Part shown: one piece after another, positions 12,834 to 29,400 of the stretch | Numbering within the stretch: position 1 is the stretch's first letter | How the letters are laid out: each line of letters starts with the position of its first letter | NCBI GenBank assembly: GCA_044230415.1 | Contig: JBGARE010000001.1 | Span: forward strand, 433,195 to 497,194 | Direction: 5' to 3' | DNA from: Kofleriaceae bacterium | GTDB lineage: Bacteria > Myxococcota_A > Polyangia > Haliangiales > Haliangiaceae | Length of the DNA: 64,000 nt | Notes under the pieces: model-generated | Seen by the model: the letters and a program-made list of their open reading frames with translations, nothing else | What the model was told of the DNA's origin: nothing | Databases searched by the model: none | Position numbers and translations under genes: made by a program

Positions 12834-13712
12834 ATGAGGCTCGGTCGTGCGATCTGCGTCAGCCTCGACGAAGGAGTATGTCGGGTAGTCGCCGATGCCC
12901 TGACGTCCGCGGGCCTGACAGTCGAGCACACTACTTCTATACCTGCCGACGTCACCGGCGCCGTCGCTGTCATCGTCGATCGCGCCACTCGGCTGGCCGC
13001 TCCGACCGTCCTGCGCGGCCTGTCCGTTCCGGTGGTTGTCGTCGGAGATGACCTCGACGACGACGGCCTCATCACCCTCATGCTCGAGGGTCCGGTCAGC
13101 CATCTCGTCCGCGATCCAGGTGATCCCCAGCTCCAGATCACGTCCGAAAAGCTCGCCACCGGCGACATGTTCGGTCTCGAGAAGTACGTGTCCCCGGGCG
13201 TCACCGTGGGAGAGCGGCTGATCAACACCGACTCGGACAAACGCCATGCCATCGACGAGGTCTGCGCCTGGGCCGAGGCCGTGGGCGCCCGGCGCCCCAT
13301 CGTCGCTCGCATCTCGTCGGTCGTCGACGAGCTCGTCATGAATGCACTCCGCGAGTCCGATGGAGACCTACGCCGTCGCGCCCGAGGCGCGGTCCTTCGC
13401 TGGGCCAAGGACGACGGCACGATCGCCATCTCCGTCGGCGATCGCTTCGGCACGCTGCGCCAACACGATGTCCTCGATCACGTCCGCCGGGCGCGCACCG
13501 AAAAGGGTCGTCCCCAATCTCCCGCCGAATCGCAAGGCGCGGGCCTCGGTCTCTATTTGGTGCTCGCCAACGTCGCGTCGCTGATCGTCAACGTCACGCC
13601 GGGCGAGCAGACCGAGGTCGTGTGTCTGTTCGATCTCGCCGCGCCGTCGAAGCGGGGAGCGATCGGCAGCGGAGTTCGCTCGCTGCACGTGTTCCAGATG
13701 GTCGGCACCTAG
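12834..13712 (+). CDS. GHKL-type ATPase-like protein (anti-sigma-factor/HATPase_c-like) with an N-terminal receiver-like domain
   Basis: The N-terminus (ICVSLDEG...VAVIVD...VVVVGDDLDDDGLITLMLEG) looks like a degenerate receiver. The C-terminus carries the G-rich ATP-lid motifs DELVMNAL...GTIAISVGDRFG...GAGLGLYLV typical of HATPase_c_2. I chose the start MRLGRAI... at 12834 over the ATG at 12771 to avoid overlapping divergent start codons. Confidence 0.55.
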   Translation: MRLGRAICVSLDEGVCRVVADALTSAGLTVEHTTSIPADVTGAVAVIVDRATRLAAPTVLRGLSVPVVVVGDDLDDDGLITLMLEGPVSHLVRDPGDPQLQITSEKLATGDMFGLEKYVSPGVTVGERLINTDSDKRHAIDEVCAWAEAVGARRPIVARISSVVDELVMNALRESDGDLRRRARGAVLRWAKDDGTIAISVGDRFGTLRQHDVLDHVRRARTEKGRPQSPAESQGAGLGLYLVLANVASLIVNVTPGEQTEVVCLFDLAAPSKRGAIGSGVRSLHVFQMVGT

Positions 13713-14128
13713 CTATTCGTTCGTTCGCGGCTCCCACTGTCCGTGGACTTTGCTCGCTCCTTCGCGATCTCCTCGGCGACGATGTCGGGGAACGCGCGGG
13801 TATCGATCGGCTTCGCGATGTAGGCGTTGCAGCCCGCTGCGAGCGCCGCTTCCATGTCGCCCTTCATCGCATTCGCCGTGACCGCGATGATCACGAGATC
13901 GGCGTACCGCGGGTCGCGACGCAGTTGGCGTGCGAACGAGAGCCCATCCATCCCGGGCAAGCTGATGTCGAGGAGGAGACACGCGAACGTCTTGCTCGCG
14001 AGGATCGGCGCTGCTTCTTCGGCCGAGGTCGCGCTGTCGACCTGGTAGCCACGCGCGGCGAGCACCACGGTCAAAAGCTTCACGTTCATTTCGGCGTCAT
14101 CGACAACGAGCAAGCGCTCTCTCTGCAT
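13709..14128 (-). CDS. Single-domain response regulator (CheY-like receiver)
   Basis: MQRERLLVVDDAEMNVKLLTVVLAARGYQV...LLDISLPGMDGLSFARQLR...IIAVTANAMKGD...NAYIAKPID carries the canonical receiver acidic pocket, the phosphoacceptor Asp in LLDISLPGMDG, and a conserved Lys. It converges on the previous gene with a 4-nt overlap. Confidence 0.8.
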   Translation of the reverse strand: MQRERLLVVDDAEMNVKLLTVVLAARGYQVDSATSAEEAAPILASKTFACLLLDISLPGMDGLSFARQLRRDPRYADLVIIAVTANAMKGDMEAALAAGCNAYIAKPIDTRAFPDIVAEEIAKERAKSTDSGSRERTNS

Positions 14129-14268
14129 CAGACTCGCTCCTTGCAAACTCGAAGAGAGGCGCGGGCGTTGCTGACGAACACCTCGTCAGCGCGACACGTA
14201 ACGCATCGGAGCAGAATCGCCCGTCGGAACTGAGCGTGGGAGTTAGCTCACGGGTAGTTAACGCCGAT

Positions 14269-15531
14269 TTAACGTGTCGGGTGCCGCAATACGCTGCACC
14301 CGATCACTACGAGCGTCGCTCCACCGACGAGTGCGACTCCCTCGATCGGTAATGTCTGACGGAGTGTCGCGAACAGCCCCGGTGCGAGAACGAAGATCGT
14401 CCACCATCCGACGATCCACGCGAGCTTCGCGCGACGTCGCGCAGCAGTGGAGATCGGTAGTGACTGCGAGAGTCGGATCAGCTCGATCGGTGGCCGATGC
14501 AGCCGTCCACCGACGGCGATTCCGTATGCTGTCATCGTCACGAGTGTCGCGACGAGCCACGGCATCGGATCGACGGGCTGCTTGAAGCCGATGATCGCGA
14601 GCACGAGGAACGCGAGCGCACCGAGCGCGAACGCCATCGGATAACGACGGCGCATCAGCCGCGCGTCCTTGGAGTACGCGAGCGCTGCATCGCCGATCAG
14701 CGCGGCGATCAGTCGCTCGATTCCCGTCGGGGGACGGATCTCCAACGTCGCGAGTCGCTGGCGATCGAGCGCGGACACGTCACGTAGGATCGTTCCCATC
14801 ACGCGCGGCGTGCCGCTGCGCGTCGCGACGATCGCGAGGATGGAGACCCCGACGAGGATCCCGAGCGTGATCGCGGGTGGCGCCGACGGTGTGCCGCCCG
14901 TGAGCCACGACGTCAGGAGCAGGATCGCGACGAACACACCGGTGGACGCGAAGCCGGGCAGGGCGCCGAGGAGCGCGGTGTTCGGCGTCGGTGGCTTGGC
15001 CGTCGCATCGACGCCGGTGGCCGTGCGCAGCTGCGCGACGGCTTCGGAGGCACTGAGCGCGACGAGCTGCGCGCCGAACAGCGCGACCGCGGGGATCAGC
15101 AACGCGGCGGTGACACCGAGTGCTCCGCCGAGAGCGAGGTGCCGCACCGCGAGATCCACGCTGTGATCGAACAGCGGAGCGGCTCCGATCGCGACGATCA
15201 GCGTCGTGGCGATCGCGGATCGCACGCACCGATACAGCGCCGCCGCGAGCAACGCTTCGCCTTCGATCGGAAGCTGCGCGAGGAGCGCCGCGTCCGCGCG
15301 CCAGTACAGGTGGAACGGCACGCGCATGAACGTGATCATGAATGCGACGCACGTACCCGCCAGCCACGCGTGACTACCGGCGTCGTACGACGCGTGCGCG
15401 CGCCACGCGACCCATCCGGCGAACGCGGCACCGAGGGCAGCGACGATCGCGAGTGGTCGCGTGAAGACGGAGCTACTGCGGCGCTCGTACAGATTCGACC
15501 AGCGAACGAGGTCGCGGCCCGCGATCGCCAT
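14269..15531 (-). CDS. Polytopic membrane protein, probable ABC-2-type permease partner of the upstream ABC ATPase
   Basis: About 420 aa with at least 10 hydrophobic helices. Its ATG overlaps the stop of the ABC ATPase gene at 15531, indicating an operon with translational coupling. Confidence 0.65.
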   Translation of the reverse strand: MAIAGRDLVRWSNLYERRSSSVFTRPLAIVAALGAAFAGWVAWRAHASYDAGSHAWLAGTCVAFMITFMRVPFHLYWRADAALLAQLPIEGEALLAAALYRCVRSAIATTLIVAIGAAPLFDHSVDLAVRHLALGGALGVTAALLIPAVALFGAQLVALSASEAVAQLRTATGVDATAKPPTPNTALLGALPGFASTGVFVAILLLTSWLTGGTPSAPPAITLGILVGVSILAIVATRSGTPRVMGTILRDVSALDRQRLATLEIRPPTGIERLIAALIGDAALAYSKDARLMRRRYPMAFALGALAFLVLAIIGFKQPVDPMPWLVATLVTMTAYGIAVGGRLHRPPIELIRLSQSLPISTAARRRAKLAWIVGWWTIFVLAPGLFATLRQTLPIEGVALVGGATLVVIGCSVLRHPTR

Positions 15532-16256
15532 TACGTCGGGCCCTCGTCGGCGATCAGCGAGACGTAGAGATCCTCGACGGCAGTCGGGCCTTTCGCGAGG
15601 AGCTCGCTAACCTCGGCGCCGCGCTTGTCGGCGACGAGCTTGCCCTTGTCCATGATCAAGATGCGATCGCACATGCGCTCGGCCACGCCGAGCAGGTGCG
15701 TGGACATCAGCACTGCTGCGCCGCGATCAGCCGCACCTCGCAACGCTGTGCGTGCGGAGCGCGACGCGTGGGGATCGAGACCGTTGAGCGTCTCGTCGAG
15801 GAGGATCAGCTCCACGGGACCGACGAGCGCGGCCGCGAGCCCGACACGCTGGCGCATGCCGAACGACAGCTCGCGGCAGGGGCGCTGCGTGATCTTTGCG
15901 AGCCCGAGGTCACCGAGGATCGCCGCCGCGGCCGCCTCGTCGCTGCCGCGCGCTTGCGCGACGAACGTGACGTGCTCGAGCACGGTGAAGAACTCGTACA
16001 GCGCGGGTGGCTGATCCGCGAAGCCGACTCTGGCGCGAGCGGATCGCGGCGCGGTCGCGAGATCCTGTCCACCGACGGTGATCGTGCCCGTGGTCGGGAC
16101 GATCGAGCCCGCCATCGCGGACAACGTGGTGCTCTTGCCCGCGCCGTTGGGCCCGAGCATCAGCGCGATTTGCTTTGGCTCCAGCTCGAACGAGAGGTTG
16201 TCCACCGCGACGCGCTTGCCGTAGTGAATCGTGAGCCCGGCGACCTTGGCGATCAC
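15531..16256 (-). CDS. ABC transporter ATP-binding protein
   Basis: Walker A GPNGAGKST, Q-loop, ABC signature LSFGMRQRVGLAAAL, Walker B ILLDETLNGLD and an H-loop are all present. The length of 241 aa is typical. Confidence 0.9.
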   Translation of the reverse strand: MIAKVAGLTIHYGKRVAVDNLSFELEPKQIALMLGPNGAGKSTTLSAMAGSIVPTTGTITVGGQDLATAPRSARARVGFADQPPALYEFFTVLEHVTFVAQARGSDEAAAAAILGDLGLAKITQRPCRELSFGMRQRVGLAAALVGPVELILLDETLNGLDPHASRSARTALRGAADRGAAVLMSTHLLGVAERMCDRILIMDKGKLVADKRGAEVSELLAKGPTAVEDLYVSLIADEGPT

Positions 16257-17572
16257 AGCCCCGTGTATACGACGACGTAGAGCACTTTGGCCTCACTCCG
16301 CGGCGGCGCGATCGTTCGCAGCGAGATTTGTTGCGGGCCCTCCTTGGTCGGCTCGGACGCGGTCTGATATGCGAGCGTCCAGTTCTGTCCCCGATACAGG
16401 TGCTCGCGCAGGACCACCTCGACGGCGTACGCGCGGGTGTTCTTGATCGTGAGCACGAACTCCTCGACGACGCGGCGGTTGTCCTCGTCGTACGACAGCT
16501 CCCGGCGCTCGCGTGTACCGGTGACGCCCTCCGCCGTGCCGAGGGCGATCGTATCGACGGCGGCGACGCGCGTGGCGGCATCGAACAGCCGCGATTCGCC
16601 GAGCACGGCGAGCGTGCCATCCGGGCGGCGCTCGAGGAGGCGCACGGGGCCCGCGGGCAACCCCTCGGTCGAGGCGTGCGGGCGGACCACCTCGAAGCTC
16701 TCGGTCACCCGCGGTGACGCTCGCTCCATGCCGAGGGATGCATCGATGATCGGGCGTGCGCCGCTGTTGTCGAGCTTCGTGCCGATCGGATCGTAGACGA
16801 GCACGGAGCGCATCGCGCGCGGCAGATCGCCGGGCAGGAGCTCGATGCGAGTCTCGCCATTGGTGATCACGAGATCGCCGAGGACGCGCGGAGTCGCCGT
16901 CGGTGTGGTGCTCGGTGCGCCACCGGTCAGCGTGGTGCCGACGTTCTCGGCGATCTGCCCACGCCACGCGCCGAGCTCGGAGTCCACGACCTGCGTCCGC
17001 GCGGCGGGCAGGGGCGCCGTCAGCGTGTTGCGGATCGCGATCGCCCCGCGCAGCGTGACCCGCGTGCGCGCCGGCGTCGTGGTCATCGTGTACGCCGCAT
17101 CCCACGTGAGCCGATCGGTGACGAACGCGATCGCGAGACTGTAGCGGCCGGCCTTCGGTGCACTCACGTCGAACGTGACCGTCGTCGGTCCGCTCGGAGG
17201 CGGTGCGGTCTTCTGCGGCGCTTCCGCGTCCTTCGTCGCCTCCTCGAGATCGAGTTCCTTGTCGAATTCGTCGTCGATAGACGTCTCGGGCTGGGGCACG
17301 ACGGGCACGTCGGTGATCGGTCCGCGTAGCTCGCCGACGGTGAGCACGCCGCGATCCACGATCGCGACATCGTCGAGCGAAACTCCCTCGGGCACCACGT
17401 ACGAGACGGTGGCGTGACTCGCCTCGGGGACCACGACATCGATGCGATGCTTGATCAGCGCGCGATCGCGATACAGCGTGATCTCGTCGGCGGCGACGGC
17501 CGTACCGCTCGGCAATGCGCGCGTATGACCGCCGCACGCGGCGAGCGCGACGACGATCGCGAGCAACTTCAC
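16253..17572 (-). CDS. DUF4139-like (MuiA/TIGR02231-like) lipoprotein, paralogue 2
   Basis: The refined start is a GTG giving VKLLAIVVALAACGG, a lipoprotein signal with lipobox LAAC. This GTG overlaps the upstream gene's TGA as GTGA. The body resembles the upstream paralogue, with LTWDAAY/MQWTADY W-x-A-x-Y motifs and a C-terminal ...YVVVYTGL/...YTLVYTW beta-strand tail. The 518-aa track ORF has an Arg-rich artefactual N-terminal extension. Confidence 0.7.
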   Translation of the reverse strand: MKLLAIVVALAACGGHTRALPSGTAVAADEITLYRDRALIKHRIDVVVPEASHATVSYVVPEGVSLDDVAIVDRGVLTVGELRGPITDVPVVPQPETSIDDEFDKELDLEEATKDAEAPQKTAPPPSGPTTVTFDVSAPKAGRYSLAIAFVTDRLTWDAAYTMTTTPARTRVTLRGAIAIRNTLTAPLPAARTQVVDSELGAWRGQIAENVGTTLTGGAPSTTPTATPRVLGDLVITNGETRIELLPGDLPRAMRSVLVYDPIGTKLDNSGARPIIDASLGMERASPRVTESFEVVRPHASTEGLPAGPVRLLERRPDGTLAVLGESRLFDAATRVAAVDTIALGTAEGVTGTRERRELSYDEDNRRVVEEFVLTIKNTRAYAVEVVLREHLYRGQNWTLAYQTASEPTKEGPQQISLRTIAPPRSEAKVLYVVVYTGL

Positions 17573-18924
17573 CACGTGTACACCAGCGTGTAGCCCACGG
17601 TGCGTTTGCCGCCGGGCGGAAGGGCGACGCGATACTCGAACGTCTGCGCGCCACCTTTCGCGCTCTTCTGATCTTCGGCGTCGATGTGGAACAGCGTCCA
17701 TCGCCAGGCGAACTCGCGGACGACGACATCGATCGCGCGCTTGCTCTTGTTCTCGACCTTGACCTCGATGCGCTCGGTCAGCGTGCGCGCCTTCTCGTCG
17801 TTGGTGCACGTCACTGCCTTGCGATCACCGACGACGTCCGTGCTGCGATCGAGTCGGATCCGCGCGGCCCCCGCACGCGATCGCAGCGGCTCCTCGGACA
17901 CGACCTCGACGCGATCGCCCTTGCGCTTGAACATCCGGACACGGCCCGGAGGCAATGGTTCCTTCGTCGGGACCTCGACCTCGACGGCGATCTCCGCGGT
18001 GCCCGGTCCGGTGTTCGCGTTGTACTGTGCGCAGTCCGTGTTCGCGTAGCCTTGAAAGCCGGCGGACAGATCGGGAATCGCTTCGTACAGCACGACGGTC
18101 TTCGCCGTCGCCTTTCGCTGAGCGGCGACTAGCGGCACTTGCACTTGCTGCCCGGCGAGGAGCTTCACGGGTTGCGCGATCGCGTAGCGCGCCGGGGACT
18201 TGCCGCCGTCGACGAGCGTGACGTCCGCGGACTCGAACGACGCGCCGGTCGTGTTCTTGATCGAGGCCCACGCCGAGAAATCGAGCGACGTGCCGGCCTC
18301 GTCGAGCACCGCGAGATAATCGGCGGTCCACTGCATGCCCGTCGCGCGATACGACAGCTCGAGCTGGTGCTTGCCGGGCGTCTTCGTCGCGAGGCGCAAT
18401 GCGAGGCTGCCGCGATCGGTGCCCGGCGGAAGGCGCAGGTCTTGTACGTAGTCGCGTCGCAGGACTTGCAGGCGTCGCTGTTCGCCGGCGCCGACCTCGA
18501 TGACGATCGCCTGCGCGTCGACGGATCGCAGGACGCCGCTGACGTCGCCCTTGGGCGTGATCGCGGTGACTGACTCGCCGACATGGCGCGCGATGAGCGC
18601 CGTCGGCGTCGTCGCGCCGGGCGTGAATCGCTGCTCGACGAGCGTGGTCGTCGCGTCGGTGAGATCGCGGATCTGCACGCTCGCCGGATCCAAGGTCGAC
18701 GCGACACCGGCGATTCGCACGTCTCCGGAGGCGGCAACATCGACCTCGGTCTGTTGCGTGATCATCGCTCCCGAGGGCGGTGCGAACCCACCATAGGTGA
18801 GACCGCCATAGGCCGACGCGGCGGGCGCTTGCACCGCCCACACGGTGATCTTCGTGCGCGAGGAGCCCGCCGACGCCACTGCCATGGTCGCGATGGCCAC
18901 GAGGCTTACGAAGGCGACCCGCAT
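17569..18924 (-). CDS. DUF4139-like secreted protein, paralogue 1
   Basis: ATG start with the signal peptide MRVAFVSLVAIATMAVASAG. The 451-aa body has the same domain order as the downstream paralogue: LRSVDAQAIVIEVG...QWTADYLAVLDEAG...TLVYTW. The family assignment is from memory of the DUF4139/DUF4140 architecture and has not been searched. Confidence 0.7.
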   Translation of the reverse strand: MRVAFVSLVAIATMAVASAGSSRTKITVWAVQAPAASAYGGLTYGGFAPPSGAMITQQTEVDVAASGDVRIAGVASTLDPASVQIRDLTDATTTLVEQRFTPGATTPTALIARHVGESVTAITPKGDVSGVLRSVDAQAIVIEVGAGEQRRLQVLRRDYVQDLRLPPGTDRGSLALRLATKTPGKHQLELSYRATGMQWTADYLAVLDEAGTSLDFSAWASIKNTTGASFESADVTLVDGGKSPARYAIAQPVKLLAGQQVQVPLVAAQRKATAKTVVLYEAIPDLSAGFQGYANTDCAQYNANTGPGTAEIAVEVEVPTKEPLPPGRVRMFKRKGDRVEVVSEEPLRSRAGAARIRLDRSTDVVGDRKAVTCTNDEKARTLTERIEVKVENKSKRAIDVVVREFAWRWTLFHIDAEDQKSAKGGAQTFEYRVALPPGGKRTVGYTLVYTW

Positions 18925-18994
18925 TTCTCGATCATACGCTGTCGTACTTCGATAAGCCCGCGACGACCCAAACAGGCGGGCGGACCGCTTCTCT

Positions 18995-21900
18995 GTGTAT
19001 GATTCGTCCGTGGCGGTCGCGACCTATCCGGGCACGGTGTCGCCGTTGCGGGGGCTAGATCCTTTCGGGGAGGCCGAACGCGACGTGTGGCACGGTCGCG
19101 AGACCGAGCGCGACGAGATCGCGAAGATGGTCACGGCCGATCAGTTCCGCTCGGGGCTCGTCTATGGGGAACCCGGTGTCGGCAAGACGTCGCTGGTTCG
19201 CGCGGGCCTGATCCCGTACCTGCGCGATCACGGCATCGTCGCGCTCGCGTGTGAAGATCTGACCCAGCCCGCAGCGAGCTTCGCGCAGGGGCTGTCGGCG
19301 TTCGGAATCCAGCCGAACCCGAACGAGCTGCCGGCGCTGTTCGCGCAGCGCGCGGTGACGAACGCCGTCGCGGGGCAACAGTTCGTGTTCGTCGTCGACG
19401 ATATCGATCTGCTATGCCAGGACGAGCGCGCCGTCGGCGAGCTCAGCGATCTCTATCAGCGCGTGGTCTCGCGCGGCGCGGGTCGTGCGCGATTCCTGTT
19501 CGTCTGCGCGAGCGAGCGACAGCACTTGCTCGGTGCGCTCGAGCGGCGGACGGGCTCGCTGTTCCCGCCATCGTCGCGCTACGAGCTGCAGCGCATCTCG
19601 GTCAACGCCGCGAGCGGCATCTTCGATCGCATGCTGTCGCTGTCGGGCGTCGCGGCGGATCCGGAGCTCGCCGACGCGGTCGTGCAAGGCATCTCGCACG
19701 GCCAGCCGCTCCTCGCTGCGGATCTGCAGATCGCCGGCATGGCGATGCGCGATCTGCGGATCTCGTCGAAGACCGCGCTCGAAAAAGCGGGTGGACCCGG
19801 CGAGCTCGAGTCCGAGTGGCTGCACGAAGCCTGTCGCGCGACCGGAAACGAACGCTCGGGCCTTCGCTTGTGCGCGGAGATCGCCTCGACGACGGCACCA
19901 CGCACCGCGGAGTCGATCGTTCGCAAGGTCAACCTCGATCCCGCGTACACGAGCTCCGCGCTCGTCGTGCTCGAGCAGCGCGGCGTGATCAGCCGCGCGG
20001 ACGCGACGGGAAACACGTGGATGCTGCGCCACGAGGTGCTGACGCCACGCGTGCGCGAGCTGACCGCGCCGGCGCGTGCGGCTGCGCGGCGCGGGTTCGA
20101 TCTGCTCGGCAGCAAGACGCAGGGCAACCAGCGCCTCAAGCTGCGCGAGCTGCGCGCGCTGCGCACCGAGGGCATCGCGGCGGTCACGCCCGAGGAGCAA
20201 GCGGTCGTCGATCGCAGCAAGCGCTATTACATGATGCTCGCGGGCGCGATCGCGGCGGCGCCGATCGTGATCCTGATCTTCATCTGGATCGCGATGCGCG
20301 GGAAGGTCTACTTCGACCTCGAGCCGCACGCCGGTGGTGATCGCATCGTCGTGCGCTACGGACGCGCCGGACTGTCGAGCTTCCACTGGTTGCCGGGCGG
20401 ATTCGGCGACGAGATCGCCGACACGGGGCTCACGCGCCCGATGTCCGCGGCCGAGGCGTGGAAGAAGATCGATGGCCACGACATCGGCGGCAGCGACGAC
20501 GATTGGGACACGCAGCTGCGCTCGTTGATGGCGCCGCAACTCGGTGGGCTCGTCGATTACGCGACCACGGGCAACGAGAAGGCGCTCGATGCGCTCGCGA
20601 AGGCGGCAAAGGATCCCGAGGATCTCGCCGAGCTGCTCACGTCGTTGCGGCCGATCGCGCGCGGCACCGCGAGCGAGGTCGCGCTCGTCGAGAGCGCGCT
20701 CAAGACGCAGTCACCGGCGGTGCAGCGTGCAGCGGTCGCCGTCGCCGGTGCGGCGGCGGGACGCGGCACGGACGCGTATCAAGACAAGCTCAGCGCGGCG
20801 CTGACGTCCTCGGATCCCGAGCTGCGGCGCATCGCCTTTGGTGCGGTGCGCGGACTCGGCGAGCGCGGTGCGGCGCTGTTCGCGAAGGCGCTCGAATCGG
20901 GACCGGATCCCGAGATCAAGCGCGAGCTGATGGTCGAGGTCTCGACGGCGTCGGTCCCCACCGCCGACGACGGCGAGGGCCCATCGGTCGCGACCATGAT
21001 CGGCGTACTGGGTGAACCCGACGCGACGCCCGCGATGCGCGATCGCGCGAAGACGCAGATCAAGGGTGCGCTCGCGAAGAATGCGGATGCAGTCGCCGTC
21101 GAGCTCGTGAAGCTCGTCGCATCGGACAAAGCGCCGGTCGAAGCCCGCGTGTACGCGATCGGCCTGTTGCGCGAGATGGATCCGCTGCCCAAGTCGGCGG
21201 ACCTCGTCGAGAGCGCGCGCACCGCGTTCCAGTCGCGCTCGCCCGCGGTTCGCGCAGCCGCATTGCCGCTCTACGCGAAGGCGGATCCCGAACGCGCCGG
21301 TGGTGACCTCTCGAACATGCTCGAGGACAAGAAGCTCGAGAAGCCGCTGCGCATCGCCGCCGCGCTCGCATGGGGCGAGGTCGCGGCCACGAACAAGATG
21401 GCGGCGCAGAACGCGCTCGATCGCATGCTTACCGACGAGGACTCGGACGTGCGGGCCGCCGCGGCGGAGGCCGCTGGCAAGGCGGGGCGCGCGTACCAAG
21501 AGAAGCTCGTGAAGATGGCGAAGGGCGAGAACTACAACGTCCGTATCGGCGCCGCGCGTGGGTTGGCCGTCAGCGCCGAGAGTGGTGGCAACCCGAGCGT
21601 CGCCGTCGGCGGCATCTTCCAGCTCTGGCGCGAGAAGGGTCGCCCGCGCCGCGAGGCGGCGAAGGTCTACGCGCAGCTCGCGAAGAAGAAGCCCGCGATC
21701 GTGCTCGAGTACCTGTCCGCGGCCGCGCGCACGCCCGAGGACGAGGGCCTGCATCCGATCGGTGTCGAGGGTCTGTGCAACGCGGCCCTCGCCGGAAGCG
21801 CGGGTGCGCGCGCCCAGCTCGCGAAGTCCACCGACGATCCATCCGTCGAGGTACGCAAGCTCGTCATGGCGTGCGTCGCGGACGGTCCCGATCCCGCGAA

Positions 21901-22924
21901 GAACGGCGTGGTGATCGCGGCGAAGCTCGTCGGGGATTCGAGCGCCGAGATCCGCGCCGATGCCGCGCGCGTCCTCGCGCTGTCCGCGGCGAAGGGCAAC
22001 AAGGCCGTGGGGGAGTCGCTCGTGAAGATGCTCGACGATTCGGACCGCGATGTTCGCGTGATCGCGATCCGCGCCGTCGGTGGCCTCGGCGCCGACGCCC
22101 CGAAGACCGCGCAGACCACGATGTCCAAGATGTTCGAGCGCGGCGACGAAGCCGAGAAGCTCGCGCTCCTCCGCGCGGCTCGCCAGATCGGCGCATCGGA
22201 TCTCATCGGCCTCGCGGTCGCCGACTCGTCGCCGATCGTACGCGTCGAAGCCGTCGATGCCGCGCTGTCCTCGGGCCAGCGCGCGAAAGAGACGCTCTCC
22301 GCCGCGCTCGCCGATCCCGATCCGCAGGTGCGCAAGGCCGCCCTCGAGCGCCTCGCCGCGCAGAAGGACAAGCTCGAGCCCGCGGTCATCGAGCGCACCC
22401 TCGCACTCGCCGTGCGCGATCCGAACCCGGAGCTCAGCCAGCTCGCGCTGACCACCGTCGCCCGCGTCGCGCCGAAGGAAGCCGTCGCCGCGCGCCTCAC
22501 GCGCTCGCTCGGCTCTCGCGCGGAACGCGAGCGTGCCCAAGCCGCCGCAGCAGCGATCGGTCTCGTCGAGCGCGACGCCGCGTTGACCTCGCAGCTCCTC
22601 TCGCCGCTGCTGTCGGACCCGTCGCACGACGTTCGCGTCGCCATGCTGCCCGCGCTCGCGGCTGCCTACGCGAAGACCAACGAGCCCGAGAAGCTCGCCG
22701 GTCTGCTCCGTGATTCCGAGACCAACGCGATGCGCCGCATCGTCGTCGCGGCTGCGTTCATCACGCTCGCGAAGACAGATGCCGGCCGCGCCGCCACGGA
22801 GTCGTCGCTCGGCAAGGTCGCGAAGAACGGACCGCCGATGGCGCGTCAGATCGCGAAGCTTGTCGGTGGCCTGATCGGCGGCAAAGCCGACGGGATGGCG
22901 TTCCTTCAGGAACTGATCCCGTAG
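18995..22924 (+). CDS. STAND-like P-loop NTPase with a transmembrane segment and a long C-terminal HEAT-repeat (PBS-lyase-type) array, 1309 aa
   Basis: Walker [23 protein letters not shown] lies near the N-terminus and a Walker B-like [11 protein letters not shown] follows. A hydrophobic helix ([24 protein letters not shown]) sits around residue 410. After it come at least 12 HEAT-like repeats with [12 protein letters not shown] spacing, for example [49 protein letters not shown] and [15 protein letters not shown]. The start codon is GTG. The gene is divergent from the DUF4139 operon, 70 bp away. Confidence 0.75.
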
Positions 22925-25680: not shown

Positions 25681-28600
25681 TCAGCCAAACCGACCGCTCG
25701 GAAAGAACACTTCGGTCGCTCTCTCTGGGGCAACCATCCCCGCCGTGCGCGCGCGCTCGTCACCCGCTGCGATCAGCTGTGCGCCCTCGGTGCCTCCGAG
25801 CTCCTCGCCGAGTCTGCGCTCGAGGCTGAACATGGTCACCGCGATGCCACGCGCGTTCGACTCGGAGATCGCCGCGCGCAACGCCCTGACCCGTGCATCG
25901 CGATCGTCGCCGAGCATCGCGATCGCGGCGCGCAGCGACGTGGCGGCGGTGAGCGCGCCGGGGAAGTCGAGCTTCGCGAGCTTGTCCGCCTGTGCTGACG
26001 CCGCGCGAAGATGCGCGAGCGCCTCGCTCGGCGCGCCGCGATGGCGTGCGGCGATCGCGAGTCCCGCGAGATACGTGCCGTACGCGTGCAGCCATTCGAG
26101 GCGCAGGATCGGGATGCGACCGACGAGCGAGCGCTGCATGCGCCGGCACTCCTCGCCCAGCTCGGACTCGAGCGTCGCGAATGCATTCGTGTAGAGCGCG
26201 ATGCGAATGCGACTCCACAGTCCCCACGCACGTTGGTTGCCGAACGAGTCCTTGCCCGGCAGCCAGGACGCGAGCGCATCGAGGACATCGACGCGCGCCG
26301 TGTCCGCACGATCCGCGATCACGTGGCGCATCGCGAACCGCACGCGAAGCGTGACGTCCTGGAACAGATCGCCTTTGCGCTTCGCGAGCTGGATCTGCGC
26401 GGTCGCCCGCTCGGCCATCTCGTTGTAGCGACCGAGCATCTGGAGCGACGACAGCGCGAAGTGCAGCGCGATGTCCGTCTCCCATCCCGGACCGCGCCCC
26501 GCGCGATACCACTCGTGCTCGAGGCGCGTTGCACTCTCGAGCGCACGCACGAAGTCGTTGTCGAGGACAAACACCTTCGCCGTCTGCGCGAGCTCCGCGT
26601 ACCACGCGGACACGGGCATCGCCGCGGCGTCGGCGGCGCGTCGCGTGGCGGCCATCAAGCGATCCGCGCGATCGTGGCGACCGAGGACCGCAGCGCCGAT
26701 CGTCGCCGAGGCCAGCGCGCGCGCGATCTGCTGTGGCGACCCGTACTCGAGTGCGAGGCGCGCCGCGCGGCCCGAGAAGTACGCACCGAGGAGCGTGTCG
26801 ACCATGCCGAGGCCCGCGCCGATCGACCAGCAGATGTCGGCATGGATGGACCGCGGATCGATCTCGGTGCGCGGCTTCCAATCGAGCGCGCGCCGCATGC
26901 GCAGCTGGTTCCACACGATGCCGGCGATCGTGCGCACGCGCGTCGTCGGTAGCGACATGTCCGCGCGCGCGAGGACGGCCCGTGTGGTCTCGAGTCCGCG
27001 ATCGAGCCGCCCCGCCATCAGGAACCGCTCGGCCGCACGCCGGAGGAGATCGAGCTGCTGCGGAGAATCGGCGGACTCGAGGTTCGCGGCTTCGAGGTAG
27101 CACTCGGCAGCGTCCGCCGTACGGCCGTCGTTCGCGAGTGCATCTGCGAGCGCGACGAGCAGCGGGCCGCGACGCTCGGGCTGCGGCGTGGCCGCGAGCG
27201 CGCGCTGGTACAGCTCGGCGGCGCGGCCGAACGCGAATGCGTCGAGCGCGGCCTTCGCGGCGGCGACAACGTAGTGCGCCGCGCGCTTGAGATCGCCGGC
27301 GGACTCGAACCGCTCGAGCAGCGCCGCCGCGGACGCGCCCATCTCCTCGAGCCCCCGCGCGATCGCGCCGTGCAGCCGACGCTGATCGGCATCGGCCACG
27401 TGCGCGAGGATCGCCTGCCGGATCCGATCGTGAAACGGCTCGATCGCATCCTGTGGTCGCGAACCATGGACACGCACGAGCTGCTCGTCGACGAGAGCCG
27501 TCACGTGGCGTTCCGCGGCATCGACGATTCCCGCCGCAGCGCATGCGACGTGGCGTGGAACCGGTGAGCCCGCGACCGCGACCGCCGCGAGGAGCTCGCG
27601 CGTGGCTGGATCGAGCGCGAGCGTGCGCTCCCAGATCACGTCCTCGAGGCGCGATGCTTTCAACGCCGTCCTGCGATGCCGCACGAGCTCGCGCAGGAAC
27701 AGCGGGTGGCCGCGGCTCTCGACGACGATCTGCGCGGTCTCCACGTCCGGATCCGATGCGACGAGCCGCACGAGCTGCGCGGCCGCGGCGGCGCTCAGTC
27801 CGCTGAGAGCGATCGTCCGCGTGTGCGGTGCAGCGGCGATCCGCTCCGCGATCTGTGTTCCTTCGCGCGGGCGCTTCGTCGCGATGATGCAGATCGGCGC
27901 GCCGCTACCGGCGAGCTCCTCGAGGAGCAACGTGCTGTCCGCGTCGGCCCACTGCACGTCGTCGATCGCGATCACCACGGGGCGGCGCTCGCCGATCCGC
28001 ACGAACAGGTGTCGTAGCGCTGCGAACGCGCGTTCGCGAACATCCGATCCGAAGGCGAGGCCCTCGTCGTCCTCGCGATCGGCGAGCGCGGGCACGGCAC
28101 GCAGCGCGGTGAACACGGCGAGCAAGTCGCTGACCTGGCCCGGCACGACGCGCTCGACGGAGGCCGGTGTACGCGACATCAGATAGCGCGCGAGATCATC
28201 GACCACACCGTCGACGGCGTTGAACGGCACGCGTTCGCGCTCGTGACAGCGGCCGCGCAGCACGACGAGCCGCGGCTGCGCTGCCGACGCTTGCTCGAGA
28301 AAGCGATCGACGAGCACGCTCTTGCCGACACCCGACTCTCCCTCGACGAACACGCACGCGAGCTGTGTCCGGCTCGTGTCGAGGGCGGCAGCGAGCACCG
28401 CGAGCTCGTCTTCGCGGCCCACGAACGGCTGTCGCGGGATCTCGAGCGCGATCTCGTCCGCACCGGCGAGCATCGCGAGGATCTGCTGCTCGGTCGGACG
28501 CTGTCTCGGATCGGCGCTCAAGAGGTTCGTGCACAGCCATTCGAGATCCGCCGGGATCCCGGCGACGAGCGTGCTGGGCGAGGGAGCGGCGAGATGCTGC

Positions 28601-29400
28601 TTGAGCACCAGGAGCTCGTTGCCCGTGACGTCTCCAAACGGCGTGCGTCCGGTGAGCGCTTGGAACAACAGCACGCCGACGGCGTACCAATCGGCCGCGG
28701 GGGTGATCGCATCACCGCGCGCCTGCTCGGGGGCCATATACGTCACGGTGCCGATCACCGCTTCGTCGCGCGCAGCGGTCGCGTGCAGCTCGGCGACGGC
28801 GCCGAAATCGAGCAGCACCGCACGACCGCTCGCTTCGACGAGGATGTTCGATGGTTTCACGTCGCGATGGACGATGCCCGCCGCGTGCAGCGCCGAGAGT
28901 CCGCGCGCGAGACCGAGGAGCGCGACGCGCAGGCGATCGAGCTCGCACCGCGGAGCGGGCGCGCGGTCGGCGGCGTACACCGGTGGGGTCACCACCGTCG
29001 AGTCGGCGGGTCCGTCGAGCTTCGACGTCTCCTCCGATCGAGACTCGACGACGCGGCTCGACGTGGCGACGCTCTGGGGCGAGCTCGAGCGCACCCAATC
29101 GACGAGGTTGTCACCGTGGAGGCGATCCATGGTGAAGAACCACGTGCCCGACGACTCGAACAGCTCGCCGAGCTGCACGAGGTTGGGATGCTTCACGTCG
29201 CGCAACATGCGGAACTCGGACTTGAAGCGCAGCACTGCATCGGGTGAGAGGCCACGCAGTGTCTTGAGCGCGACCTCGACGCCCCGCTCCTTGTCGTACG
29301 CGCGATAGACGACGCCCATTCCGCCGCGACCGAGGACATCGAGGACCTCGAATCGGCCGTCGATCATCGATGGGAGTCCGCTCGGATTCCCCTCATCCAC
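25681..29400 (-). CDS. Ser/Thr protein kinase fused to an AAA/P-loop ATPase and TPR-like repeats (STAND-type signalling kinase)
   Basis: The N-terminal Hanks kinase shows [29 protein letters not shown] and APE. A P-loop ([11 protein letters not shown]) with Walker B ([12 protein letters not shown]) follows, and the C-terminal half is helical and TPR-like. This architecture is typical of myxobacteria. Confidence 0.9.

Follow-up and report, generated by a model that had tools for sequence, protein, structure and literature searches.

A single-pass nSTAND1 NTPase with a predicted periplasmic HEAT solenoid and a conserved divergent ABC neighbor in Kofleriaceae

The DNA analyzed here is a stretch of 64,000 nucleotides (the window) from a Kofleriaceae bacterium (GenBank assembly GCA_044230415.1, contig JBGARE010000001.1, positions 433,195 to 497,194 of the forward strand). 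At 18995–22924 of the window, on the plus strand, we confirmed a maximal open reading frame (ORF) of 1309 amino acids (aa) plus a stop codon. Its product joins a P-loop NTPase of the nSTAND1 class, a single transmembrane (TM) helix, a small β-rich domain and a long HEAT solenoid, and the gene stands divergently to an operon that encodes an ABC ATPase and a polytopic membrane protein (Table 1). We consider it highly likely that the protein spans the inner membrane once with N-in/C-out topology, the NTPase being predicted to lie in the cytoplasm and the HEAT array in the periplasm. A scan of one genome per species yielded 50 loci from approximately 49 metagenome-assembled genomes (MAGs), 37 of them with a full-length orthologue; identity to the nSTAND1–HEAT protein ranges from 63 to 93% across the loci, and the gene is apparently single-copy in each MAG. 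Nearly all loci are labeled Kofleriaceae, Haliangiales, Myxococcales or Myxococcota, a few are labeled Proteobacteria only, and one is labeled Acidobacteriota.

The cytoplasmic part is a complete STAND NTPase module of the nSTAND1 class. Pfam nSTAND1 (PF20703) matched residues 17–206 (E 1.4e-15; 58.3 bits against a gathering threshold of 27.1) in an alignment spanning only model positions 1–192 of 379, and the same family was present in all listed relatives. The generic Pfam families AAA_16, AAA_22 and AAA also matched, and a scan of the protein against NCBIfam gave no significant match. An earlier note, made from the letters of this DNA alone, had proposed a Walker A/B NTPase of STAND type and had left its exact placement to profile searches; these placed it in nSTAND1, and a failure to align with STAND or AAA NTPases, which the note had named as fatal to the assignment, was not seen. 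Both Walker motifs are in place (the B motif as FVFVVDD, residues 130–136), of the ASCE-type forms GxxxxGK[ST] and hhhhD[DE], and Walker A is followed by SLVRAGLIP. The motif pattern given in the note, FGRE...AGL.P, therefore holds overall, with one correction: the first letter of FGRE is H here (HGRE), F being the family consensus. In an alignment of 59 sequences, His346 is invariant, and the motor residues vary hardly or not at all.

An AlphaFold2 model of residues 1–560, calculated from the 59-sequence alignment (mean pLDDT 85.8), comprises an α/β P-loop core, a helical domain (residues 203–297), a winged helix (residues 305–344) and long linker helices. Foldseek comparison of this model with the PDB returned ORC/Cdc6 initiators, the archaeal ATPase PAB2304 and the plant resistosomes ZAR1, NRC2 and WRR4A (E 2e-8 to 1e-6), that is, folds of the ORC and NLR type, and a PDB sequence search with the NTPase module found no solved structure detectably related to it (best E 0.39). 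The protein thus combines the Walker motifs with helical and winged-helix domains bearing a conserved histidine and with a C-terminal repeat array, as is characteristic of the STAND class of P-loop NTPases, reportedly delineated by Leipe, Koonin and Aravind in 2004. His346, which we take to match the MHD histidine of NLRs in position, would by analogy contact and sense the bound nucleotide. Pfam detected no N-terminal effector or adaptor, the nSTAND1 match beginning at residue 17, and conservation among the 37 orthologues begins at the start codon.

The NTPase module is followed by one clear TM helix, as the earlier note had recognized. Residues 411–434 reach a 19-residue Kyte-Doolittle value of 2.61, against 1.21 for the next-best window of the whole protein, and hydropathy revealed no hydrophobic segment within residues 1–410. 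The segment is hydrophobic in all 37 full-length orthologues (Kyte-Doolittle 2.5–3.3), and its residues drift among hydrophobic ones as expected for a lipid-facing helix, with only two of 24 columns invariant; Pro423 is invariant in the 59-sequence alignment. In the AlphaFold2 model, the segment belongs to one continuous helix of 36 residues (399–434) that stands isolated between two separately folded modules.

The flanks of this helix are strongly asymmetric in charge. Counted over 15 residues on either side of the uncharged core (21–24 aa) in 80 representatives, lysine plus arginine amount to 4.00 in the N-terminal flank versus 1.74 in the C-terminal flank. The N-terminal flank is higher in 71 of the 80, equal in seven and lower in two, and the excess holds in every architecture class described below; net charge is +2.3 on the N-terminal versus −0.5 on the C-terminal side. 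The Wilcoxon p of 1e-13 for this asymmetry overstates independence, the 80 sequences being related. Cysteines also thin out at this point: the cytoplasmic module holds 1.10 per 100 aa and the part past the helix 0.25, and in 102 of 123 members of the protein's own family (class A below) that part has exactly two, the invariant Cys928 and Cys960. By the positive-inside rule, the charge asymmetry puts the NTPase on the cytoplasmic side and the HEAT array beyond the membrane, answering from sequence the question of sidedness raised in the earlier note.

The part beyond the membrane helix opens with a β-rich region (residues 437–500 in the AlphaFold2 model of residues 1–560), with the consensus YYLD...RVVVRxGRPxLSxFxWLP...FGxVxADTG. 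This juxtamembrane domain is common to the HEAT-type classes of relatives, whose phmmer matches reach query positions ~470–520, whereas matches of the WD40 class end at ~420–433. The remainder is a HEAT α-solenoid of tandem two-helix units of ~30–40 aa, with Pfam HEAT_2 matching six stretches at 80.8 bits against a cut-off of 27.7 and HEAT also above its cut-off. The repeat array had rightly been put at no fewer than 12 units over about 800 aa; a simple sequence signature gives 12 canonical units, and a second AlphaFold2 model (residues 435–1309, 54 sequences, mean pLDDT 90.5) contains ~48 helices, equivalent to ~23–24 HEAT units, over residues ~504–1306. Foldseek related this second model to CAND1, importin-β/karyopherins, SF3B1 and PP2A-A (E 2e-10 to 3e-8). 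Cys928 and Cys960 are the sole cysteines of the 875 residues after the TM helix and are invariant in 54 family members. In the model, they occupy the same position on equivalent helices of consecutive HEAT units, and they may form a periplasmic disulfide.

The real start of the gene is probably not at 18995. A hexamer TATGAT or TATAGT lies 6–8 nt before an in-frame GTG or ATG opening (V/M)AVATYPG at 36 of 38 loci. It is a non-coding DNA element, because it is out of frame with the ORF at 13 of those 36 loci. Since this conserved hexamer sits inside the first codons of the maximal ORF, GTG 19010 is the probable start, and the annotated start should be moved accordingly. Protein conservation starts at VAVATYPG, the in-frame sequence before it is unconserved, and homologues as annotated by their sources measure 1299–1304 aa, in agreement with a product of 1304 aa. 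The distance of 70 bp to the divergent gene given in the earlier note is correct for the maximal ORF, measured to the ATG at 18924, and becomes 85 bp from GTG 19010. The two −10-like hexamers of the divergent genes stand back to back, 61 bp apart, and the spacing suggests that both genes are transcribed leaderless or near-leaderless. These hexamers surfaced through orthologue comparison only: a σ70 and terminator consensus scan of 18700–19200 returned nothing. Comparison of the spacer across orthologues, among which its length differs, revealed no conserved element beyond the two hexamers.

On the minus strand, four genes run from 18924 to 14269 with stops and starts that overlap or abut, suggesting translational coupling. 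The maximal ORF of the second (16253–17809) overcalls this DUF4139-like gene; its probable start, GTG 17572, shares bases with the TGA of the gene before it in the sequence GTGA. A literature search on DUF4139 found no functional information. The ABC ATPase belongs to the exporter type represented by DrrA, GldA and NodI. The 420-aa protein paired with it has ~8–9 hydrophobic segments and matches no family in Pfam (even at E ≤ 10) or NCBIfam, and all of its homologues, proteins of the same lineage, are unnamed. It may represent a new family of ABC membrane subunits restricted to Kofleriaceae and related Myxococcota.

This neighborhood is conserved. Among the 30 loci whose upstream flank measures 4.2 kb or more, an ABC ATPase is encoded divergently within 6 kb upstream in 29, and the 420-aa membrane protein is present upstream in 27. 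The DUF4139-type genes between the nSTAND1–HEAT gene and the ABC gene number two at 20 of these loci, one at nine and none at one. Members of the same family that are only 47–48% identical to the protein still have the ABC ATPase (60% identity) and the membrane protein (33–36%) divergently adjoining, and no DUF4139 genes were found at their loci. The survey of homologous contexts suggested in the earlier note thus upholds its link to a divergent DUF4139/ABC operon as far as the ATPase and the membrane protein are concerned; the DUF4139 genes proved optional. The side downstream of the nSTAND1–HEAT gene is variable between loci.

Loci L001 and L003, which belong to the closest relatives, share further neighbors with the window. 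Just downstream of the ABC operon, 13709–14146 (minus strand) encodes a stand-alone response-regulator receiver protein whose position is kept in these two loci only. At 25681–29400 (minus strand), 2.7 kb downstream of the nSTAND1–HEAT gene, lies a gene for a second large STAND-like signalling protein, of 1239 aa, with a Ser/Thr kinase, AAA_16 and a long helical C-terminal region; it is conserved beside the gene for PEP carboxylase (PEPC), again in L001 and L003 only.

Table 1. Coordinates, strands and supporting evidence for the features of the nSTAND1–HEAT gene and the divergent operon (positions in the window; residues numbered from the maximal ORF).
Feature	Position	Strand	Evidence or remark
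nSTAND1-TM-HEAT protein, maximal ORF	18995..22924	+	ORF list, Pfam, motif inspection
Probable real start codon, GTG (codon 6 of the maximal ORF)	19010..19012	+	1304-aa product opening VAVATYPG
−10-like hexamer TATGAT	18998..19003	+	6 nt 5' of GTG 19010; TATAGT in the majority of orthologues
Mirror −10-like hexamer TATGAT	18931..18936	-	6 nt 5' of the divergent gene's ATG (18924)
nSTAND1 P-loop core, residues 17-206, including N-terminal motif	19043..19612	+	Pfam PF20703, AlphaFold2 α/β core
Walker A GEPGVGKT, residues 58-65	19166..19189	+	Motif; G58, G61, G63 invariant, K64 nearly
Walker B FVFVVDDI, residues 130-137	19382..19405	+	Motif; F132, D135 invariant
Helical and winged-helix domains, residues 207-346, ending in invariant His346 (MLRHE)	19613..20032	+	AlphaFold2, Foldseek, alignment
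Cytoplasmic linker helices, residues 347-410, ending in invariant basic motif R-S-K/R-R	20033..20224	+	
Single TM helix, residues 411-434, invariant Pro423	20225..20296	+	Hydropathy, alignment, AlphaFold2, charge bias
Juxtamembrane β-rich domain, residues 435-503, predicted extracytoplasmic	20297..20503	+	AlphaFold2 pLDDT ~90, phmmer match extents
HEAT solenoid, ~23-24 two-helix units, residues 504-1309, predicted periplasmic	20504..22921	+	Pfam, AlphaFold2, Foldseek
Invariant Cys928	21776-21778	+	
Invariant Cys960	21872-21874	+	
DUF4140/DUF4139 protein, first gene of the divergent operon	17569..18924	-	Signal-peptide-like N-terminus; optional
Second, weakly DUF4139-like protein	16253..17572	-	Probable start GTG 17572; lipoprotein-type signal VKLLAIVVALAAC; optional
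ABC-2/DrrA-GldA-like ABC ATPase	15531..16256	-	Conserved partner
420-aa polytopic membrane protein	14269..15531	-	Conserved partner; no Pfam/NCBIfam family

The nSTAND1–HEAT protein is under strong purifying selection over its whole length, at a housekeeping-like rate. By the Nei-Gojobori method, comparison of the locus with its three closest orthologues gave ratios of nonsynonymous to synonymous substitution (dN/dS) of 0.087–0.090 for the HEAT array and 0.065–0.105 for the cytoplasmic module, next to 0.10–0.13 for PEPC, 0.04–0.08 for the ABC ATPase, 0.15–0.18 for the membrane partner and 0.19–0.20 for the first DUF4139 gene. Across loci, its amino-acid identity tracks that of PEPC (r = 0.95, mean difference +1.4 points), and per-region conservation of the HEAT array is 0.74–0.85 among the 37 full-length orthologues. 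The likeness to signalling and defence STAND proteins drawn in the earlier note holds for STAND and finds no support for defence: no effector was found, PADLOC gave no significant match, the sensor is not hypervariable and the chromosomal neighborhood is stable. The top hits in PADLOC-DB 2.0 were HEAT-ARM_XIII, at 12.7 bits (E 0.008) and confined to the repeats, and OloA (E 0.089), and no effector-like gene was found among the neighbors, which are ABC, DUF4139, PEPC and kinase genes. Of the marks of an nSTAND1 conflict system, neither a fused or nearby effector or EAD (for example caspase, TIR, trypsin, EAD or bDLD3) nor a diversifying sensor, gene expansion or patchy island-like spread was found, and the loci share conserved synteny. 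We accordingly rejected placement in a defence island, and the protein looks like a housekeeping partner of the neighboring ABC transporter and not like an immune sensor.

An exhaustive phmmer search with residues 1–526 retrieved 1835 relatives, 213 of them below E 1e-10, which fall into four architecture classes. Class A, the protein's own family, is NTPase-TM-HEAT with ~1310 aa; class B has the same order at 24–31% identity; class C, from Acidobacteriota, is Ser/Thr kinase-TM hairpin-nSTAND1-TM-WD40; and class D is N-terminal TM hairpin-nSTAND1-TM-HEAT/ARM-like. Across the four classes, almost every long representative has its TM segment 350–382 residues past Walker A. Examples of class C are the proteins P0104, P0108 and P0114, among others, and locus L056 (8001–12215), from Acidobacteriota (Blastocatellia). 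Where resolved in classes C and D, the extra N-terminal TM segments form a hairpin, some members showing one or none at threshold. Because of this hairpin, kinase and NTPase lie on the same side of the membrane, so that in class C both would be cytoplasmic and the WD40 propeller would lie outside. Members of classes B, C and D showed no defence-island-like contexts.

The clade was named by Kaur, Iyer, Burroughs and Aravind (2021; eLife 10:e70394; PMC8195603), and their supplement bears on the remark in the earlier note that a single TM helix between NTPase and repeat sensor is unusual. It is not: the helix has a fixed place across the nSTAND1 subclade, and nSTAND1+TM is tabulated there 412 times, 278 of these with a BetaPropeller, 22 with TPR and four with FGS, along with 20 instances of Pkinase+nSTAND1+TM (PMC8195603). 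Other nSTAND1+TM proteins in that work bear caspase, TIR or EAD N-termini. Its main text treats nSTAND1 solely as the central NTPase of effector-NTPase-sensor conflict proteins; no discussion of nSTAND1+TM topology was found in that text, and no nSTAND1+TM+HEAT or +ARM entry in the supplementary table (PMC8195603). The protein described here belongs to this known nSTAND1+TM+repeat kind, sharing the NTPase clade, the N-terminal motif FRGLxPFxExD..FFGR, the GKTSLxRAGLxP motif and a TM helix at the same place past the winged helix, followed by a repeat array. It differs in its ~800-aa HEAT sensor, in lacking an N-terminal effector, EAD or Death-like domain, in being a stable orthologue that evolves at a housekeeping-like rate, and in having an ABC ATPase and a membrane protein as conserved partners; these are what is new about it.

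The kinase-nSTAND1-TM-WD40 proteins of Acidobacteriota (e.g. HYV06033.1, Blastocatellia bacterium) share the homologous NTPase-linker-TM part at 25–31% identity, up to query position ~420–433, with a Walker A-to-TM distance of ~370 aa and the same asymmetry of flanking charge. They differ in that a kinase fused on the cytoplasmic side provides an obvious output and a β-propeller forms the outer domain, and they have neither the juxtamembrane β domain nor an ABC neighbor. Among soluble STAND and NLR switches, Apaf-1, plant NLRs such as ZAR1, MalT and bacterial Avs/bNACHT resemble the protein in their P-loop, helical and winged-helix domains with the conserved histidine and in their C-terminal repeat sensor. 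The logic of this class, which would be expected here too, is ligand-controlled exchange of ADP for ATP coupled to oligomerization. Such switches are wholly intracellular, whereas here the sensor is parted from the switch by the membrane and there is no effector domain. In overall topology, the protein presumably resembles M. tuberculosis PknD (kinase-TM-β-propeller) and ToxR-like regulators, which we take to be single-pass N-in/C-out proteins that carry their signalling module in the cytoplasm and a repeat or sensor domain outside it; their cytoplasmic module is a kinase or a DNA-binding domain, whereas this one is a STAND NTPase. The KAP P-loop NTPases, reportedly described by Aravind and colleagues in 2004 as membrane-embedded, related to STAND and AAA+ proteins and implicated in signalling or conflict, differ in that their TM helices are inserted within the P-loop domain, whereas the single TM helix considered here follows a complete NTPase and winged helix. 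With no TM segment within residues 1–410 and the sole TM helix past the winged helix, membership of the KAP group was rejected.

Taken as a whole, the locus is best explained by a transmembrane nucleotide switch that is tied to the divergent ABC system, an explanation for which we see about an even chance. How such a switch would work, and how it would be linked to the ABC system, can be set out only tentatively and with appreciably less confidence, since ligand binding, oligomerization, the direction of signalling and the output are all inferred. The periplasmic solenoid would bind a partner or ligand in the envelope, candidates being the DUF4139 proteins and the periplasmic face or the substrate of the ABC system. 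The TM and linker helices would relay the resulting change to the STAND module, which would exchange ADP for ATP and oligomerize under the membrane. The target of the oligomer would then be either the co-conserved ABC transporter or some other partner in the cytoplasm. In a bolder form, which we hold to be rather unlikely, the protein would be a non-immune "trans-membrane NLR" whose sensor is a giant periplasmic HEAT solenoid and whose nucleotide-driven oligomerization directly gates or assembles a dedicated ABC transporter, composed of an ATPase of known type and a membrane subunit of a new family.

Several observations weigh against a switch tied to the ABC system. A far subfamily of the same architecture (~27% identity) does not stand beside an ABC transporter, and the linkage, looked for in the kinase-WD40 and TM-hairpin classes (C and D), was not present there; the ABC link may therefore be family-specific, or may reflect no more than shared regulation or position. 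At locus L017 (JABFXX010000497.1), ample flank is available, yet no ABC gene stands beside the nSTAND1–HEAT gene and only a DUF4139 gene is present, an exception among the loci that could be due to a rearrangement or to faulty assembly. As Pfam shows no effector or output domain in the protein, what is proposed for the output is guesswork. The topology, for its part, is derived from sequence statistics of related, non-independent sequences. Finally, we know of no characterized precedent for a periplasmic HEAT solenoid of ~800 aa.

The main rival explanation uses the same parts in the reverse direction. ATP-driven oligomerization of the STAND module would array the HEAT solenoids into a periplasmic platform that assembles or positions the envelope machine encoded alongside (the ABC system with the lipoprotein-type and the secreted DUF4139 protein), information flowing outward. 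The very large, strongly conserved and non-diversifying solenoid, of the scaffold type of CAND1, importin and PP2A-A, fits such a role, as do a cytoplasmic side devoid of an output domain and the fact that the co-conserved partners are envelope proteins, including DUF4139 proteins of lipoprotein and signal-peptide type. However, the number of those DUF4139 genes varies from zero to two and falls to zero in distant family members, and the fusion of a cytoplasmic Ser/Thr kinase in related classes suggests that signalling originally ran from outside to inside. We regard an inside-out scaffold as unlikely on this balance.

An immune role is less likely still. On this account, the protein would be an NLR-like detector of phage or competitor molecules in the periplasm and would act through an effector encoded elsewhere to bring about defence or cell suicide. 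The nSTAND1 clade owes its definition to conflict systems predicted for multicellular bacteria (PMC8195603), the caspase, TIR or EAD N-termini mentioned above occur in other nSTAND1+TM proteins, and the host is a myxobacterium. The protein itself, however, shows no such domain, its nSTAND1 match beginning at residue 17 and its conservation at the start codon, and neither a significant PADLOC match nor effector-like neighbors were found. It apparently occurs once per MAG in a conserved neighborhood, and purifying selection on its sensor array equals in strength that on a central metabolic enzyme.

It is very improbable that the protein is a membrane-tethered regulator of ToxR/CadC type, which would respond to a signal in the periplasm and regulate the ABC operon through binding of its winged helix to the promoter region that the divergent genes share. 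In favor of this idea, the divergent arrangement, as of a regulator and its target operon, is conserved, and the winged-helix region gave weak MarR/HTH matches (E 0.12), some homologues being auto-annotated as MarR-like. The MarR match nevertheless falls short of significance, this winged helix is the standard one of STAND proteins and carries the nucleotide-sensing position His346, and the spacer is conserved only in the two −10-like hexamers and varies in length. We rejected the remaining idea, barely credible, that the hydrophobic helix is a buried or peripheral element of a wholly cytoplasmic protein: HEAT solenoids are typically cytoplasmic and AlphaFold2 cannot show membrane insertion, but the long uncharged core with its high hydrophobicity and lipid-facing drift, the charge asymmetry in all classes, the isolated 36-residue helix and the sharp drop in cysteine past it all speak for a TM segment.

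STAND and NLR proteins are textbook intracellular receptors. The family described here, together with hundreds of tabulated and unstudied nSTAND1+TM proteins, would place the sensor on the far side of the membrane. The present member may be the most tractable entry to this design, being a stable orthologue with no confounding toxic effector, with high-confidence models of both halves and with a fixed ABC partner that offers an obvious epistasis test. It would also, to our knowledge, be the first instance of a very large HEAT solenoid that functions in the periplasm of a bacterium. If the protein proved instead to be a passive scaffold, it would be an ordinary lineage-specific envelope protein. 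If it is tied to the ABC system as a transmembrane switch, it would connect an unannotated membrane protein family to a function. Should oligomerization under the membrane indeed control a dedicated transporter, it would represent a previously undescribed way to couple the state of the envelope to transport, and the widespread nSTAND1+TM architecture would be a general design of outside-in receptor and not a defence device only.

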